Notes under the pieces: generated by a model
The model's input: the letters and a program-made list of their open reading frames with translations, nothing else
What the model was told of the DNA's origin: nothing
Databases searched by the model: none
Translations under genes and position numbers: made by a program
From: a virus
Lineage: Duplodnaviria; Heunggongvirae; Uroviricota; Caudoviricetes
Length of the DNA: 5,114 nucleotides
IMG/VR virus record: IMGVR_UViG_2778261527_000009
Location: 1-5,114 of that record
Direction: 5' to 3' (one strand)
In this document: piece by piece, positions 1 to 5,114 of the stretch
Layout: every line of letters begins with the position of its first letter
Numbering within the stretch: the stretch's first letter is position 1

Positions 1-450
1 TGCTGCATGCTCCTGCAGCTTCGAAATTGAGAGATACAGCTCGTCGTTAATTGCTGTCTTCTCATGCGGTTCCACCACACCGTCTTCGATTGCCGAACGA
101 ATCTGTCTGGAATAACTGCCAATCTGTTCAATGACTTCCAGCAGGCGCTGGTTAATATCGGCGTTGTCCACATCCTCGACGTCAGGAAGAGACACAAAGA
201 CGCCATTTGCAGACTGCGCCACAGCGTCAGCAATGAAGTGAGTTCCACCAGCACGTTGCAAAATCATTGCCCATCCCAGCGGGAAAATCTGATCGCCATC
301 GGCACGAAGGCGGTTAAATAATGCGTTTTCTGTTACATCCAGCCAGTCAGCTGCTTCAGCGTAACCACCCGGCAACGCTGCGATAGTTTTTCTGACAGCT
401 TTCACGTACCACTCAGGCTGTTTTTCTACTTTCCAGTGATGCTTACCCAC
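1..450 (-). CDS. CII-like / YdaT-like lysogeny regulator, partial (3' end runs off the window start); GTG start
   Basis: Minus-strand frame is open from GTG (plus 448-450) to position 1 with no stop (150 codons, hand-translated: VGKHHWKVEKQPEWYVKAVRKTIAALPGGYAEAADWLDVTENALFNRLRADGDQIFPLGW...ISKLQEHAA). Strong SD AGGAGG (plus 457-462, 6 nt spacer). Sits immediately downstream of the cro-like gene, the position held by cII/ydaT in lambdoid prophages. Not in the ORF track because it lacks an in-window stop. Family assignment is from memory of CII(CP76)/YdaT-like proteins, not a search. Confidence 0.5.
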   Translation of the reverse strand, partial: MGKHHWKVEKQPEWYVKAVRKTIAALPGGYAEAADWLDVTENALFNRLRADGDQIFPLGWAMILQRAGGTHFIADAVAQSANGVFVSLPDVEDVDNADINQRLLEVIEQIGSYSRQIRSAIEDGVVEPHEKTAINDELYLSISKLQEHAA

Positions 451-703
451 GGTTCACCTCCTGTTCCTGTGGTTTAAACCCATTCTGGTTTTGGCTAGAT
501 TGAAAACGTGCCGGATAAAGAATCTGCATTTCGCTGACTTCACCCTTAAAAAAATTGGCTAAACGTTCTGCAAGCTCGATAGATGGAATCTGCTCCAGCC
601 TCTCAATACGACTCAACGTCGCTGGATTGACTTGAACACCCGCAGCAACATGCTGCAAAGTGAAACCATGCGCCTTACGCACATTTCGTAATGGTGATTG
701 CAT
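443..703 (-). CDS. Cro-like HTH (XRE family) transcriptional regulator
   Basis: 86-aa ORF, divergent from the repressor gene. The N-terminal segment GFTLQHVAAGVQVNPATLSRIERLEQIPS has the look of an XRE/Cro-type helix-turn-helix. SD GGAGG is 4 nt upstream of the ATG on the minus strand (plus 706-711). Confidence 0.8.
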   Translation of the reverse strand: MQSPLRNVRKAHGFTLQHVAAGVQVNPATLSRIERLEQIPSIELAERLANFFKGEVSEMQILYPARFQSSQNQNGFKPQEQEVNRG

Positions 704-800
704 ACGCCCTCCAAATATTGCGCGTTATGCATGTTATTTCACGCAATTATTTTGCGCAAGTTGATTTGCTTATCACGCAATAAAGAAATGTAATAAACGC
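704..800. promoter_or_regulatory. Divergent cI/cro operator-promoter region (OR-like) with three operator-like 15-mers
   Basis: 97-bp intergenic region between divergent cro-like and cI-like starts. Three sites fit TTGC-N7-GCAA: 718-732 (reverse orientation, ATGCATAACGCGCAA), 733-747 (TGTTATTTCACGCAA, weaker left half) and 767-781 (TTGCTTATCACGCAA). A perfect 8-bp palindrome TTGCGCAA lies at 752-759. Putative cI promoter: -35 TTGCTT 767-772, -10 TGTAAT 789-794. Putative cro promoter on the minus strand around 731-759. Confidence 0.55.
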
Positions 801-1493
801 ATGAACATAGGAAACCGAGTCAGACAACTTCGCCAAGCGAAGAACATGAAAATCGCCGATCTCGCTGAAGCAATAGGAGTAGATGCGGCGAACATCTCGC
901 GCTTAGAAACGGGTAAGCAAAAACAATTTACCGAACAAACACTGAGTAATATTGCCAAGAGCTTAGGTGTTGATATTGCTGATCTCTTTACCTCTGCCCA
1001 CAAAAGTAATACTGTATATAAAAACAGTAATGATGAGGATGTTGCGCAGGTGAAGGATGTGTTCCGTATTGAAATGCTGGATATCAGTGCCAGTGCGGGA
1101 AATGGCCTTATCCAGGGCGGTGATGTCATTGATGTGATTCATGCCATCGAATACAGAACTGATAATGCTGTATCAATGTTCGGCGGACGACCAGCCAATC
1201 ACATCAAAGTTATCAACGTTCGTGGGGACAGTATGTGTCCAACCATTGAGCCAGGAGATCTCATCTTCGTTGATGTCAGCATCAATCAGTTTGATGGTGA
1301 TGGTATATATGTCTTTGGTTTTGATGACAAAATATACGTTAAAAGACTTCAAATGATTCCTGACAAACTGCTGGTGATTTCTGATAACCAGATTTACCGT
1401 GAATGGGGAATTACTAGCGAAAACGAACACCGATTCATGGTCTTTGGAAAGGTCTTAATCAGTCAGTCGCAAACCCTTAAGAGACATAATTAA
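801..1493 (+). CDS. CI-like phage repressor (N-terminal HTH_XRE, C-terminal S24 LexA-like autopeptidase domain)
   Basis: 230 aa. N-terminal HTH (KIADLAEAIGVDAANISRLETG). Ala99-Gly100 is a candidate cleavage site. Ser144 in GDSM and Lys181 in VKRL are 37 residues apart, the same Ser-Lys spacing as LexA. No SD precedes the ATG, consistent with a leaderless PRM-type transcript. Confidence 0.9.
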   Translation: MNIGNRVRQLRQAKNMKIADLAEAIGVDAANISRLETGKQKQFTEQTLSNIAKSLGVDIADLFTSAHKSNTVYKNSNDEDVAQVKDVFRIEMLDISASAGNGLIQGGDVIDVIHAIEYRTDNAVSMFGGRPANHIKVINVRGDSMCPTIEPGDLIFVDVSINQFDGDGIYVFGFDDKIYVKRLQMIPDKLLVISDNQIYREWGITSENEHRFMVFGKVLISQSQTLKRHN

Positions 1494-1511
1494 CCTCAAT
1501 ATCCTTCCATC

Positions 1512-1536
1512 GGCCACCGAAAGGTGGCTTTTTATT
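1512..1536 (+). terminator. Rho-independent terminator downstream of cI
   Basis: GGCCACC (1512-1518), GAAA tetraloop (1519-1522), GGTGGC (1523-1528), followed by TTTTTATT. Lies 19 nt after the cI stop. Confidence 0.8.
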
Positions 1537-1546
1537 ACCTATCAAT

Positions 1547-1597
1547 TTGCATATCCCGCAAATATCACTTGCATATCTCGCAATTTAATTTTATCTT
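1547..1597 (+). promoter_or_regulatory. OL/PL-like element: two operator-like 15-mers overlapping a putative rightward promoter
   Basis: Direct repeats TTGCATATCCCGCAA (1547-1561) and TTGCATATCTCGCAA (1569-1583), 22 bp centre to centre, matching the 15-mer family seen between cI and cro. Putative -35 TTGCAT (1569-1574), 17-bp spacer, -10 TATCTT (1592-1597). Confidence 0.45.
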
Positions 1598-1744
1598 TTG
1601 TTCCAGACCAACTACAGGATTACAACAAAATCTGGTTGCAACACGGTGCATGTGTCGTAAGCAGTCAGTAAATGTCAAAAACGAACAGGCAGGACGCCCA
1701 CGAAGTAGCCGCCTGGGGCATATGAAGTCCAGGATGATTCGTTA

Positions 1745-1772
1745 GCAACAAAAAAGCGCCCTACAGGACGCT
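1745..1772 (-). terminator. Rho-independent terminator for leftward transcripts
   Basis: On the minus strand: 7-bp stem AGCGTCC/GGGCGCT (one G-U pair), loop TGTA, then TTTTTGTTGC. On the plus strand the same hairpin has a C-A mismatch and no clean U-tract, so it is better formed on the minus strand. Confidence 0.5.
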
Positions 1773-1774
1773 TA

Positions 1775-1786
1775 GCTCTTTAACAA
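1775..1786 (+). promoter_or_regulatory. boxA-like antitermination element (rrn/nut type), immediately after a hairpin
   Basis: GCTCTTTAACAA (1775-1786) is an exact match to the E. coli rrn boxA core (NusB/NusE binding sequence). It lies in the leader between the PL-like promoter and the first downstream gene and is preceded by the hairpin at 1755-1772, the boxB-then-boxA order of rrn leaders. Confidence 0.4.
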
Positions 1787-1831
1787 TCTGGTCCCCATCA
1801 ACAAGTAACTGATAACTTGAGGAGGTGTGAA

Positions 1832-2038
1832 ATGCACAAAACAGAACCCAAAATCGTCGCGCCCGGATACACAAATGAGGAAATTTACGAGTGGATGGCA
1901 AAGAAGCTGGCAGCTATAAACCAGCTTCGTGAAGTGCTGTCTTATCGACAGGAAATAATAGACTCCTTAAAAAAACTGGATCAGGAAATCACGGTTTTAT
2001 CACAGGATGTTACTTTAGATATTGTGCAGACAAATTAG
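1832..2038 (+). CDS. Hypothetical small protein (68 aa), moron-like
   Basis: ATG at 1832 preceded by a strong SD GAGGAGG (1819-1825, 6-nt spacer). The track's TTG at 1817 is unlikely to be the real start. AT-rich relative to flanks. Product MHKTEPKIVAPGYTNEEIYEWMAKK...; no family recognised. Confidence 0.55.
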   Translation: MHKTEPKIVAPGYTNEEIYEWMAKKLAAINQLREVLSYRQEIIDSLKKLDQEITVLSQDVTLDIVQTN

Positions 2039-2444
2039 GATCCCATTCATTTTCGTCAAAATCATCAAAGTGATGAATTTGTGATCTCCAGTCTCGATAA
2101 TCTAAAAATTTCTGGGCGGTTACGCTTATTTTATCAAGTGTGAGTTCATCCTGAATTGAAAGAAGAAGTTCATCAAATTTCATCTCATTAATCTGTTTTG
2201 GCATCCAGTGATGCTTCATCAGAATAAGGTGAACCAGAGCCTTTTTCCCATTCAACTGATTATAGGGAGTGCCGAATTTCTTCCGGTGCTCATGTAAGAC
2301 AAGGTCCAGAAGAGTAAGTAATGTTGCCCTTGATTCGACTTTGCTTATTTCGACTGATGACACTACCCCACTGATTTCAATGCCCCGATACTTTCCAACA
2401 TTTTCACAGTGGGATTTGTACAGCGTGTAGATATTACCGGACAT
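2010..2444 (-). CDS. Hypothetical protein (144 aa), convergent with and overlapping the 68-aa gene; candidate moron/exclusion gene
   Basis: 144-aa ORF with a mixed, protein-like composition. Weak SD (AAGGAAA) about 6 nt upstream of the ATG on the minus strand. AT-rich. Overlaps the 3' end of the 68-aa gene by 29 nt. No family recognised from memory. Confidence 0.6.
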   Translation of the reverse strand: MSGNIYTLYKSHCENVGKYRGIEISGVVSSVEISKVESRATLLTLLDLVLHEHRKKFGTPYNQLNGKKALVHLILMKHHWMPKQINEMKFDELLLSIQDELTLDKISVTAQKFLDYRDWRSQIHHFDDFDENEWDPNLSAQYLK

Positions 2445-2459
2445 TTCTTTTCCTTTTGC

Positions 2460-2511
2460 GTTGTTGGGGATAACCAGATTAACCGAATCCTTGTTGTTGG
2501 GGAATAACCAG
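2460..2511. repeat. Two near-identical direct repeats (18/19 bp) upstream of the 144-aa gene
   Basis: GTTGTTGGGGATAACCAG (2460-2477) and GTTGTTGGGGAATAACCAG (2493-2511), identical apart from one inserted A, 33 bp apart. They lie 16-67 nt upstream of the minus-strand ATG at 2444. Confidence 0.6.
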
Positions 2512-2805
2512 GTCCACCTCGCCTGATGTGGCTAAAAGCAGGCACATAACAGCTAAGTATTTTCAACCAGAGAGAATCCTTAGCGTTGTGGTGAATGCGG
2601 CTCAGCGCACGCGGGTTAAGGTTGAGGCTGACAGTCGACCTTCTGTGGATACCCACCCGCCTGGTGTGCAACCTTCGCCAGGCACCGGGAGGCACCCGGC
2701 ACCACAACTTTATGCTGTGTGTAGTCCTGGCGGTACCAGTTTGTACCCTTGCTTCCGGCTGGCATCCCCGCACCACTGAAACGACTTCTTCCTGACTATA
2801 AACGG

Positions 2806-3066
2806 ATGGAAGAAAAAATAGACGCCGTAATCCGTGAGAAATACGGGTTACCTCCTGTTATGAGCACGCCAGTGAAATATGCCGATCTCATTATGCTGGC
2901 AACCGAACGCCGCGATCTCGGGCTTGATGATGGCTCTTTCTGGCCTGTGCTGGAAGGTATCCCGGCAACAGAGATGTTCAACGTGATTCCACTGGCTCCA
3001 GGCCATGCCTACGGGATGTTTATGGAACGCTTTAACGAATTATCGGAGTTACGCAAATGCGCATGA
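2806..3066 (+). CDS. HD-domain phosphohydrolase C-terminal remnant (YfdR/YfbR-like), N-terminally truncated; possibly a pseudogene
   Basis: The frame is open from 2725 (stop at 2722-2724) to the stop at 3064-3066. The product contains TPVKY and ADLIMLATERRDL, resembling the C-terminal half of YfbR/YfdR-type 5'-deoxynucleotidases, but no H...HD metal-binding motif is encoded upstream in any frame. First in-frame ATG is 2806 (weak SD); the track's TTG at 2749 is an alternative. Confidence 0.45.
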   Translation: MEEKIDAVIREKYGLPPVMSTPVKYADLIMLATERRDLGLDDGSFWPVLEGIPATEMFNVIPLAPGHAYGMFMERFNELSELRKCA

Positions 3067-3419
3067 ATGTTTTCGAAATGGAAGGGTTTCTTCGTGGGAG
3101 ATGTGTACCGCGAGATCTGAAAGTGAATGAAACGGATGCTGAATACCTAGTGCGTAAATTCGATGCGCTTGAAGCTAAATGTGCAGCACAGGAAAACAAA
3201 GTAATACCAGTGTCAACTGAACTGCCACCAGCAAATGAAAGTGTTTTGTTATTCGATGCTAACGGAGAAGGCTGGCTAATTGGCTGGCGTTCTCTCTGGT
3301 ACACCTGGGGACAAAAAGAAACCGGAGAATGGCAGTGGACATTTCAGGTCGGGGACCTTGAAAACGTCAATATCACTCACTGGGCAGTAATGCCAAAAGC
3401 ACCGGAGGCTGGAGCATAA
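3057..3419 (+). CDS. DUF551-like phage early protein (120 aa; resembles the CPS-53 YfdS class)
   Basis: 120-aa ORF, SD GGAG (3044-3047). Start overlaps the upstream stop (ATG 3057, upstream TGA 3064-3066). Trp-rich C-terminus (WLIGWRSLWYTWGQKETGEWQW) typical of DUF551 proteins in lambdoid early regions. Resemblance is from memory, not a search. Confidence 0.7.
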   Translation: MRMNVFEMEGFLRGRCVPRDLKVNETDAEYLVRKFDALEAKCAAQENKVIPVSTELPPANESVLLFDANGEGWLIGWRSLWYTWGQKETGEWQWTFQVGDLENVNITHWAVMPKAPEAGA

Positions 3420-3724
3420 TGACCACTTTTACCGACAAAGAACTGATTAAAGAAATTAAAGAGCGTATCAGCAGCCTTGACGTGCGAGACGATATTGAGC
3501 GCCGTGCTTATGAAATCGCACTCCTATCTCTGGAAGTAGAACCAGATGAACGCGAAGCTTATGAATTATTCATGGAAAAGCGTTTTGGTGACTTAGTAGA
3601 TCGTCGGAGAGCAAAAAACGGCGATAACGAATACATGGCATGGAATATGACTCTCGGTTGGATCGTCTGGCAGCAACGAGCTGGTATCCATTTCTCAACA
3701 ATCTCACAGCAAGAGGTGAAATAA
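3419..3724 (+). CDS. Hypothetical phage early protein (101 aa; resembles the CPS-53 YfdT class)
   Basis: 101-aa ORF with TAATG stop/start overlap with the upstream gene at 3417-3421. SD GGAG at 3411-3414. Confidence 0.65.
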   Translation: MTTFTDKELIKEIKERISSLDVRDDIERRAYEIALLSLEVEPDEREAYELFMEKRFGDLVDRRRAKNGDNEYMAWNMTLGWIVWQQRAGIHFSTISQQEVK

Positions 3725-4074
3725 TGGAGCCATACAGCCTCACACTCGATGAGGCCTGTCATTTTCTCAAGATATCCAGACCGACTGCCATTAACTGGAT
3801 ACGCACAGGGCGTCTTCAGGCAACACGCAAAGATCCCACTAAGAATAAATCTCCTTACCTCACAACACGACAAGCCTGCATTGCGGCTCTTCAGTCTCCG
3901 CTGCATACTGTCCAGGTGAGCGCGGGTGATGGCATAACAGAGGAAAGAAAATGTCACTCTTCCGCAGAGGTGAAATATGGTACGCCAGTTTCACATTGCC
4001 GAACGGTAAAAGATTTAAACAGTCTCTTGGAACAAAGGACAAAAGGCAGGCGACAGAACTCCATGACAAGCTAA
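3724..4074 (+). CDS. xis: Excisionase (Xis), HTH DNA-binding, P22-type
   Basis: 116 aa starting [31 protein letters not shown], an excisionase-type HTH. TAATG overlap with the upstream gene at 3722-3726. Lies directly upstream of int and overlaps it. Length matches P22 Xis as I recall it. The track's longer ORF from 3640 is an in-frame upstream extension. Confidence 0.8.
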
Positions 4075-5114
4075 AGGCTGAAGCATGGCGGGTCAGCAAA
4101 CTTGGTGAAATACCTGATATAACGTTCGAGGAAGCGTGTGTCAGGTGGCTTGAAGAGAAAGCACATAAAAAATCACTGGACGATGACAAAAGCCGGATCG
4201 GATTCTGGCTTCAACATTTCGCAGGAATGCAACTAAGAGACATTACTGAATCAAAAATTTATTCAGCAATGCAGAAAATGACGAACCGGCGTCATGAGGA
4301 AAACTGGAAACTCAGGGCAGAAGCATGCAGAAAAAAAGGGAAACCTGTTCCAGAATACACGCCAAAACCAGCGTCCGTTGCAACGAAGGCTACGCATCTT
4401 TCATTTATAAAGGCCCTACTAAGAGCCGCAGAGCGTGAATGGAAAATGCTGGATAAGGCACCAATTATTAAAGTGCCTCAACCAAAGAATAAACGGATCC
4501 GCTGGCTGGAGCCCCATGAAGCACAAAGGCTGATTGATGAATGTCCGGAGCCATTAAAGTCTGTTGTTGAATTTGCACTGGCAACAGGCTTAAGACGCTC
4601 GAACATCATCAACCTTGAATGGCAACAAATAGATATGCAGCGCCGGGTGGCATGGATAAACCCGGAAGAGAGTAAATCAAACCGCGCAATTGGCGTTGCG
4701 CTGAATGATACTGCATGTCGCGTATTGAAAAAACAAATCGGGAATCATCACCGTTGGGTATTTGTGTACAAGGAAAGCTGTACCAAACCAGACGGAACGA
4801 AAGCGCCAACAGTAAGGAAGATGCGGTATGACGCAAACACAGCCTGGAAAGCGGCGCTGAGACGGGCTGGTATTGATGATTTCAGATTTCACGACTTGAG
4901 ACACACCTGGGCAAGTTGGCTGGTTCAAGCCGGAGTCCCGTTGTCAGTGTTACAGGAAATGGGAGGCTGGGAGTCTATCGAAATGGTTCGTCGATATGCT
5001 CACCTTGCACCTAATCACCTTACCGAACACGCACGGCAAATAGACTCGATCCTGAACCCATCGGTCCCAAATTTGTCCCAGTTAAAAAATAAGGAAGGTA
5101 CAAATGATGTGTAA
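3951..5114 (+). CDS. int: Tyrosine site-specific integrase, P22 Int-like
   Basis: 387 aa with SD AGGA (3941-3944). C-terminal catalytic signature [11 protein letters not shown] ... VRRYAHL (box II His/Arg and the Tyr nucleophile). The N-terminus [46 protein letters not shown] closely matches phage P22 Int as remembered. Confidence 0.95.

Follow-up and report, generated by a model that had tools for sequence, protein, structure and literature searches.

The window considered here is a stretch of 5,114 nucleotides (nt) of viral DNA (IMG/VR record IMGVR_UViG_2778261527_000009, positions 1 to 5,114, at its full length), and it very likely represents nearly all of a cryptic remnant of ~5.9 kb from an SfII/SfIV/SfV-type lambdoid prophage, located at thrW in an Escherichia coli chromosome. 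Open reading frames (ORFs) were called in six frames, profile searches were made against Pfam, PHROG and NCBIfam, and PADLOC was run for defence-type matches. The ORFs and the profile searches identify the window as a lambdoid immunity and early-left region with the order YmfL-cro-cI-OL-early-left-xis-int, where OL is the left operator region. Nucleotide identity is 98.4% to SfII (across 85% of the window), 98.7% to SfIV (across 77%) and 96.8% to SfV (across 62%), and the immunity, early-left and int/xis modules lie in collinear blocks with those of SfII-type phages. At least 80% of the window is covered in 168 complete E. coli genomes; its nearest complete-genome relatives are prophages in E. 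coli 81EVA (99.6%) and elppa6 (99.2%), and 219 blocks of the assembly collection list an integrase protein identical to that of the window.

The identity of the module, its junction with a tRNA gene and attachment (att) site, its truncation, an internal deletion, and the intact reading frames of cI, cro, the cII-like gene (YmfL), xis and int are established. What has been retained is the thrW att junction, int, xis, yfdT, yfdS, a fragment of yfdR, an STnc100-like RNA, a cassette with ORFs of 68 and 144 amino acids (aa), OL with the promoter pL, the cI-cro-cII(YmfL) switch, one small ORF, and the first ~78 codons of a replication initiator. No longer adjacent are the rest of the replication genes, nin-type genes, Q, and the lysis, terminase, head and tail genes, together with the O-antigen-modification end and the other att site.

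The borders of the remnant

The position of the module in a chromosome can be seen at locus L012 (assembly GCA_904810055.1, contig CAJGGA010000004.1), which matches all 5114 bases of the window at 100% identity and which was compared over 21 kb, 10 kb on each side of int. The int stop codon coincides with the window end (5114), and the earlier note on this sequence had placed the attachment site, with a possible tRNA target, just beyond that position. Both are present in L012: a tRNA-Thr(CGT) gene, thrW, occupies L012 11179-11254, starting 15 nt past the int stop, and its 3' end (46 nt, L012 11179-11224) is the core shared with SfII attP, beyond which the sequences diverge. The host genes proA, proB, phoE, crl, frsA, gpt and pepD follow to the right of thrW. 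A second copy of the att core was not found in L012, where any 17-mer of the att region occurs once in the 21 kb covered.

At the other border, L012 5370 is the last position with homology to any related phage, and it lies 681 bp to the left of the window. The ORF at L012 5167-5604 consists of ~78 codons of an HTH_36 replication initiator fused to OrfA of the insertion sequence IS3 from about codon 33 of OrfA, and beyond this fusion ORF come IS3 OrfB and then the host genes dgcT (ycdT) and pgaA. The adjacency of dgcT and IS3 is native to E. coli, since 2284 complete genomes cover at least 80% of a query made of the dgcT 3' end and the IS3 fragment; thus, the prophage was broken by a rearrangement into that IS3 copy. 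The junction between IS3 and the replication gene was not found in complete E. coli genomes. The earlier note had proposed looking beyond position 1 for replication, lysis and structural genes, and within 10 kb at L012 there are no replication, lysis or virion genes. L012 therefore lacks the contiguous replication, Q, lysis, packaging and morphogenesis modules that mark a complete SfII-type phage; instead, as in a cryptic prophage, its int, xis and immunity genes adjoin thrW-proA-proB-phoE, and the lytic functions are disrupted.

Two further loci are informative. Locus L003 (GCA_014912285.1) has the same deletion in yfdR, and its contig ends 3 nt from the IS3 join, as it would if it shared this junction. 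It also has an extra in-frame deletion of 702 bp inside int (L003 4835-4836, corresponding to window 4159-4858), which suggests that either the stub is still eroding in that lineage or the assembly contains an artefact. Locus L013 is 100% identical to the window except for 460 bp that it retains, and to the left of the module it carries genes for PerC, RusA, KilA-N, DUF968 and Q and a putative lysis-region gene (with a transglycosylase-domain product). This identity, taken with the retained genes, indicates that both the truncation and the deletion happened recently, in a single lineage.

The internal deletion in yfdR

The two parts of the window, 1-2762 and 2763-5114, are each 100% identical to L013 and are 99.4% and 99.8% identical, respectively, to 81EVA; between 2762 and 2763, 460 bp are missing relative to L013 and 459 bp relative to 81EVA. 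The deletion is clean, with microhomology of at most 1-2 nt. As judged by alignment to the 178-aa YfdR of L013, it takes codons 1-77 of yfdR, the N-terminal catalytic half, including the His and the His-Asp metal-binding motif of the HD domain; the fragment that is left is 95% identical to yfdR of the K-12 element CPS-53. Because the deletion begins within the 3' arm of the hairpin that stands behind the STnc100-like RNA in L013, the terminator, its U-tract included, has been destroyed and the RNA is now fused to the yfdR fragment.

The junction is rare. Its 32-mer is not present in GTDB representative genomes or in IMG/VR, and its 50-mer is not present in 5426 complete E. coli genomes; when a 151-nt query across it was compared with phage records, the matches listed were all in two pieces or of half length. 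Relatives with the 2762/2763 junction were found by exact-protein look-ups, and these yielded only L012 and L003.

Other lesions in yfdR occur in related loci. In L020, L021 and L023 a 1-nt deletion near 9950, at about yfdR codon 76 (TTGCCAGGA to TTGCAGGA), frameshifts the gene in prophages that otherwise look complete. Thus, yfdR has been inactivated repeatedly in the SfII-type family. A hot spot for breakage at about yfdR codon 78 was considered, given that breaks in the window lineage, L019 and L015, the frameshift in L020/L021/L023 and an IS1 in L014 all fall within ~30 nt, and it was rejected as retrieval bias. The loci concerned were all retrieved through an 86-aa product that is probably called only if yfdR is disrupted shortly upstream of its start (an interval estimated at ~70 nt); an intact upstream yfdR is present at 149 of the 159 occurrences of the motif across all loci retrieved, and the 10 exceptions are the window, L012, L003 and loci from the 86-aa look-up. 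In L017 and L018 there is N at the join, which suggests a scaffolding artefact.

The short early-left arm

The earlier note took its departure from the distance between cI and xis, which it put at about 2.4 kb and read as a drastic reduction that could mean either a decayed prophage or a compact helper-dependent island. The gap is indeed short, although the figure has to be corrected: 2230 bp separate the cI stop from the xis start in the window, compared with 8148 bp in lambda. The absence of N, kil, cIII, recombination and anti-RecBCD genes is likewise borne out, in that no ORF of the window has a Pfam, PHROG or NCBIfam match to N, Kil, CIII, Exo, Bet/RecT/Erf or Gam. The "moron pair" and three small early genes said to take their place fit in spacing and content, except that one of the three genes is the yfdR pseudogene fragment.

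The same layout is found in SfII, in which the cI-xis gap is 2417 bp and in which N, Red, Gam and Kil are absent among the annotated genes (36.6 of 41.5 kb covered). Among related loci with compared gene lists the gap ranges from 2.3 to 4.3 kb, and its size depends on the cassette behind OL and on the presence of yfdP and yfdQ. SfII has been induced from Shigella flexneri 2a, forms myovirus particles and infected three serotypes (PMC3772137); SfIV was induced by ultraviolet light, plaque-purified and shown to form lysogens (PMC3851460). In addition, the full-length prophages of 81EVA and elppa6 have the same module together with replication, RusA, Q, lysis, terminase, portal, capsid and tail genes. 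In these two relatives the module thus lies in a complete lambdoid genome of the ordinary kind, which is the finding that the earlier note had named in advance as counting against its view.

Taken together, these comparisons show that a short cI-xis arm without N, Red, Gam, Kil and cIII is the normal architecture of lambdoid phages of the SfII/SfIV/SfV/ST64B type, an inherited trait of the family and not a product of decay. Because viable phages and complete prophages share it, the reduced arm says nothing about whether an element is defective or a satellite. The decayed-prophage reading holds as an outcome at L012, but the reasoning that led to it does not; decay is demonstrated by the L012 flanks and the internal yfdR deletion, and not by the short arm. 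A more general caution follows: neither a short arm lacking N/Red/Gam nor a gene content of 5 kb shows defectiveness or satellite status, and here it was the flanks that decided.

Alternative explanations

That the window comes from an ordinary complete SfII-like prophage, autonomously inducible and with its other modules beyond position 1, is very unlikely. Such a prophage would account for the fact that the regulatory and recombination ORFs of the window are all intact, and in 81EVA, elppa6 and L013 the same module does have replication, Q and lysis genes to its left, with virion genes as well in 81EVA and elppa6. However, the only contigs that bear the deletion junction are L012, with IS3 and host genes 681 bp to the left, and L003, with a contig end 3 nt from the IS3 join, and the junction is missing from the 5426 complete E. 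coli genomes and, among the matches listed, from phage records. Less probable still, to the point of being hardly credible, is the satellite that the earlier note offered as its other alternative, a helper-dependent inducible island resembling P4 or a phage-inducible chromosomal island (PICI). The small size, the intact int and xis and the intact repressor switch would suit it, and compact int-bearing thrW remnants with a second att core exist in other genomes (L014, L018). The window's element, however, has no replication module of its own, its initiator being cut at about codon 78 and no ORF containing a primase or helicase domain; no terS, capsid-size/redirection or interference genes were detected with Pfam, PHROG, NCBIfam or PADLOC (cos and pac sites were not directly searched); there is a single att copy, the left border being a truncated IS3 and not an att site; and over its whole length the stub matches the equivalent part of complete phages at 98-100% identity, which marks it as a fragment and not as a separately evolved element. 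With neither a replication module nor hijacking genes nor a second att site, the island is unsupported.

A split prophage is the most probable of the alternatives, even if it is on the whole unlikely. Here an inversion or translocation between the dgcT IS3 and the replication gene would have divided the prophage, and its late half and second att site would survive at a different place in the chromosome. The join links proBA-thrW and pgaA-dgcT, which lie near 0.26 Mb and near 1.09 Mb on the K-12 map; with loci so far apart a simple deletion would lose essential genes, and an inversion is consistent with how the genes are oriented in L012. No reciprocal junction appeared within the 10 kb in view. 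Moreover, this explanation is only a sub-case of the remnant, since the replication gene is broken and the att sites no longer flank one unit.

Several points weigh against a cryptic remnant at thrW as the source of the window. The origin of the window from the L012 genome is unproven, despite the 100% identity and a junction that is otherwise unknown. The view extends 10 kb to each side of int, and the IS3 join may mark one side of an inversion; even so, the prophage would be defective, because the replication gene is split. The identity to L013 and the intact cI, cro, xis and int imply that the truncation is recent, such that "decay" amounts to two or three events and not to long erosion. 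Finally, the remnant status is a reading of sequence data.

Organization of the window

The features of the window are as follows (coordinates, strand, description and basis):

1-450, minus strand: YmfL, a cII-like regulator, N-terminal 150 codons (Pfam Phage_CP76, 8.5e-14; PHROG 101 CII-like, 6e-56; NCBIfam YmfL equivalog, 162 bits).
443-703, minus strand: cro-like helix-turn-helix (HTH) repressor, 86 aa (Pfam HTH_3, 5e-10; annotated as cro in SfII).
718-780, no strand: right operator region (OR) in the cro-cI spacer, with operator-like sites at 718-732 and 766-780.
801-1493, plus strand: cI repressor, 230 aa, with HTH and S24 domains (Pfam Peptidase_S24, 6e-19; HTH_3).
1512-1529, plus strand: intrinsic terminator behind cI, a 7-bp stem with 5 GC pairs followed by TTTTTATT (a terminator is annotated in SfII too).
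1547-1561 and 1569-1583, plus strand: OL, two perfect TTGC-N7-GCAA operators 22 bp apart (pattern match).
1773-1754 and 1701-1685, minus strand: two tandem terminator-like hairpins (terminator scan).
1832-2038, plus strand: 68-aa ORF, the first of the leftward early operon (PHROG 1744, 2e-33, which has no functional annotation).
2010-2444, minus strand: ECs1072-family protein, 144 aa, convergent (NCBIfam NF033230, 158 bits).
2563-2762, plus strand: STnc100-like structured RNA (Rfam match 2563-2748, five-helix core ~2582-2711; RF02076, 35.6 bits).
2762/2763, no strand: deletion junction, 459-460 bp missing (alignment to L013 and 81EVA).
2763-3066, plus strand: yfdR pseudogene fragment, codons 78-178, ORF starts at 2749/2806 (PHROG 6402/318, deoxynucleoside 5'-monophosphatase, C-terminal part only).
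3057-3419, plus strand: YfdS-like protein, 120 aa, DUF551 (Pfam DUF551; PHROG 583, 1e-82; collinear with K-12 yfdS, 95%).
3419-3724, plus strand: YfdT, 101 aa (PHROG 660; yfdT in the 81EVA and K-12 annotation).
3724-4074, plus strand: excisionase (xis), 116 aa, HTH_17 (PHROG 2907, 1e-50, with the alignment beginning at residue 29 of the longer ORF; TIGR01764).
3951-5114, plus strand: tyrosine integrase, 387 aa, intact, thrW-specific, SfII type (Pfam Phage_integrase, 3e-48).

YmfL is cut by the edge of the window; the full gene, of 183 aa, is present in the identical locus L012.

The immunity switch

The window contains a lambda-type SOS-inducible switch as far as it can be recognized from sequence, namely an HTH-S24 repressor, a divergent cro, and repeated operators at OR and OL. 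The repressor has Ala99-Gly100, Ser144 (in GDSM) and Lys181 (in VKRL), which correspond to the cleavage site and the Ser/Lys dyad. The perfect pattern TTGC-N7-GCAA occurs 3 times in the window (0.17 expected; none of 200 shuffles reaches 3), and the relaxed pattern TTGCATATCNCGCAA, with at most 3 mismatches, occurs at 4 sites (0.73 expected); by sequence, two operators are predicted at OL and two at OR. The complete switch, SOS-type repressor and intact int/xis of which the earlier note had spoken are accordingly all there, with unbroken cI, cro, xis and int frames and the S24 residues in place. A simple scan at OL detected no σ70 consensus promoter. The position of pL is presumed to overlap the OL operators, because the operators alone point to it; the best hexamers there are TTGCAT-17-TATCTT. 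On the opposite strand, the hairpins at 1685-1773 are predicted to terminate transcripts of the ECs1072 gene ahead of pL and cI.

If these elements still function, cI is probably made and would keep pL and pR shut, conferring immunity to homoimmune phages. Upon RecA-stimulated (SOS) self-cleavage of cI, derepression would lead to Cro and YmfL on one side and, on the other, to the 68-aa protein, the RNA, YfdS, YfdT, Xis and Int. The stub would be unable to replicate, lyse the cell or be packaged, and for want of a partner att site it would not excise. It may nevertheless provide superinfection immunity against homoimmune phages, and its SOS-inducible Xis and Int, if made, could serve other thrW-type elements in trans.

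A side observation concerns the region just behind OL. A block of 64-68 bp at 1677-1743, which includes the minus-strand hairpin 1701-1685, is found with 97-100% conservation behind three distinct repressor alleles (L006, L009, L010), and it looks like a boundary between the immunity and the early-left cassette modules.

The STnc100-like RNA

The RNA upstream of the deletion junction is the one mildly new item in the window, an early-operon subfamily of STnc100-like RNAs that makes a small addition to the catalogue of prophage small RNAs (sRNAs). The match to Rfam RF02076 (35.6 bits, E=3.5e-5) is below the gathering score of 47, and by the Rfam criterion the RNA is not a member of the family; the architecture is related. 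It has a five-helix core, followed by the conserved single-stranded stretch UGCUGUGUGUAGUC and then by the 5' arm only of a terminator hairpin. In the intact relative L013, a 13-bp hairpin and U5 stand behind the RNA. An alignment of 14 sequences gives a five-helix consensus fold that is 99.5% paired, with compensatory changes at 5 pairs, in the closing helix and two other helices, versus at most 1 in slid-partner controls.

ORFs that can be drawn over 2528-2795 (83 aa, 66 aa, and 137 aa on the minus strand) were rejected as genes: their products are rich in Arg, Cys and Trp, compensatory base-pair changes occur in this region, and the existing annotations conflict, with 112 aa in SfII, a "frameshifted" gene in 81EVA and a fusion to YfdP in H10407.

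The core of the RNA is conserved in early operons of phages that are not related to one another, in four settings: SfV-type phages, ST64B, Cronobacter phage phiES15, and P1 with SJ46. The ST64B copy sits between cI and a yfdP-like gene, the phiES15 copy lies just upstream of kil and gam, and the copy in P1/SJ46 is in the C1-controlled ban operon, ~30 nt upstream of tciA. Copies are present at L024 2519-2637, L025 2589-2774 and L026/L027 2504-2623, and more than 120 IMG/VR contigs carry the RNA. Relatives score 33-42 bits against RF02076 (E=3e-6 to 5e-4 in ST64B, phiES15, SJ46 and P1), and in the loci of five intact relatives (145 kb) no copy was found at the gathering threshold. The single-stranded UGCUGUGUGUAGUC stretch is conserved in the lambdoid versions, and in the SfV- and phiES15-type versions the terminator then follows, an arrangement that fits an sRNA cut off from the early transcript by termination.

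The RNA resembles STnc100 and PasD in having the same multi-helix architecture, an identical CCGGG-AGGCA-CCCGG hairpin and a UGGUG...CACCA closing helix. It differs from them in that the window-type subfamily is found in repressor-controlled early operons and all of its copies are sub-threshold, whereas canonical STnc100 and PasD are located near Q and the late genes (bioRxiv 10.64898/2026.05.13.724894; PMC12370729). The closing helix is directly followed by a 5-bp hairpin, in a tRNA-like layout reminiscent of an acceptor stem and T arm, and lambdoid leftward operons hold the RNA where lambda has N and nutL. One could speculate, at a rather low level of belief, that this ~190-nt RNA is an uncatalogued subfamily of the five-helix domain with a tRNA-like layout that acts in cis on the early transcript, either as a processing signal or as a put-like aid to read-through of the terminator behind it, rather than only in trans as an Hfq-dependent sRNA. 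Were this so, it could explain how the distal genes xis and int are expressed from pL in phages that have no N.

The accessory cassette

The stretch 1744-2513, which contains the 68-aa and 144-aa ORFs, is a swappable cassette, and other DNA is found at this position in SfII and in L004-type prophages. The 144-aa ECs1072 ORF lies in a low-GC stretch (GC 0.35-0.40) and is a moron-like accessory gene. Its product, for which 14 homologues were found, has an AlphaFold model that is all-helical with a predicted local distance difference test (pLDDT) score of 82; a Foldseek search of this model against the PDB gave a best match of only E=0.93, and PADLOC gave no match. Just upstream of the minus-strand start of the gene there is a direct repeat, GTTGTTGGGGA(A)TAACCAG, at 2460-2476 and 2493-2510, 33 bp apart. 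This repeat could be a binding site or promoter element for the ECs1072 gene.

Relationship to known elements and to other thrW loci

As a remnant of a well-characterized family at a classic tRNA site, the element is an ordinary one and carries little biological weight. It shares with SfII, SfIV and SfV the gene order, integrase, excisionase, 46-nt thrW core and short arm, at 96.8-98.7% identity, but these phages are complete, particle-forming genomes of 37-41 kb (PMC3772137, PMC3851460) and the window's element is of ~5.9 kb. It differs from SfII in the cassette at 1744-2513, and from all three in its truncated yfdR and in the lack of a gtr/acyltransferase end. The leftward operon corresponds to the pL operons of lambda and P22 in being repressor-controlled, with operators just downstream of cI, and in ending with xis-int; the lambda operon, however, is 8.15 kb long with N/nutL, cIII, kil, gam, bet and exo, and that of the window is 2.2 kb with none of these.

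Two defective elements invite comparison. CPS-53 (KplE1; argW, yfdP-Q-R-S-T, torI, intS) is a remnant of the same lineage, and window 2763-3780 is 95% identical to yfdR (3' part)-yfdS-yfdT-ypdJ of K-12. Overexpressed yfdQRST of K-12 CPS-53 inhibits DnaA-dependent initiation, and YfdR binds DnaA (PMC4776307). CPS-53, which is annotated from argW to just past torI, has lost its immunity region, whereas the stub has kept the immunity switch; in turn, the stub has a single att site and a broken yfdR, and both its integrase and its tRNA target are different. Both att sites are retained in CPS-53, which TorI and IntS can still excise. The second element, e14 (cohE-croE-ymfL), is likewise an SOS-responsive defective lambdoid element, with an S24 repressor, a divergent cro and YmfL (the sequence comparison covers YmfL only). 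It is ~15 kb long, is integrated in icd, and retains both att sites and other genes.

Other occupants of thrW were noticed in passing. L014 and L018 have a second copy of the thrW att core (at least 14 nt) about 9 kb and about 3.9 kb, respectively, from the thrW copy (at 3277 and 12324 in L014, and at 8460 and 12324 in L018); these KplE1-like remnants may still excise. At the thrW site of L015 (5440-12400; GCA_003008665.1), yfdR'-yfdS-yfdT-xis-int abuts opposite-strand genes for a Toprim primase, a D5_N helicase-primase and SSB, forming a 7-kb island between pao/yagP-type host genes and proA that is superficially satellite-like; no second att-core copy of at least 14 nt was found there. Finally, in 81EVA (L002 25955-45573) an acyltransferase gene lies directly past the SfII-like int and is followed by a P22-like prophage with tailspike, ejection proteins, capsid, portal and terminase, such that two prophages appear to be arranged in tandem at the same site.

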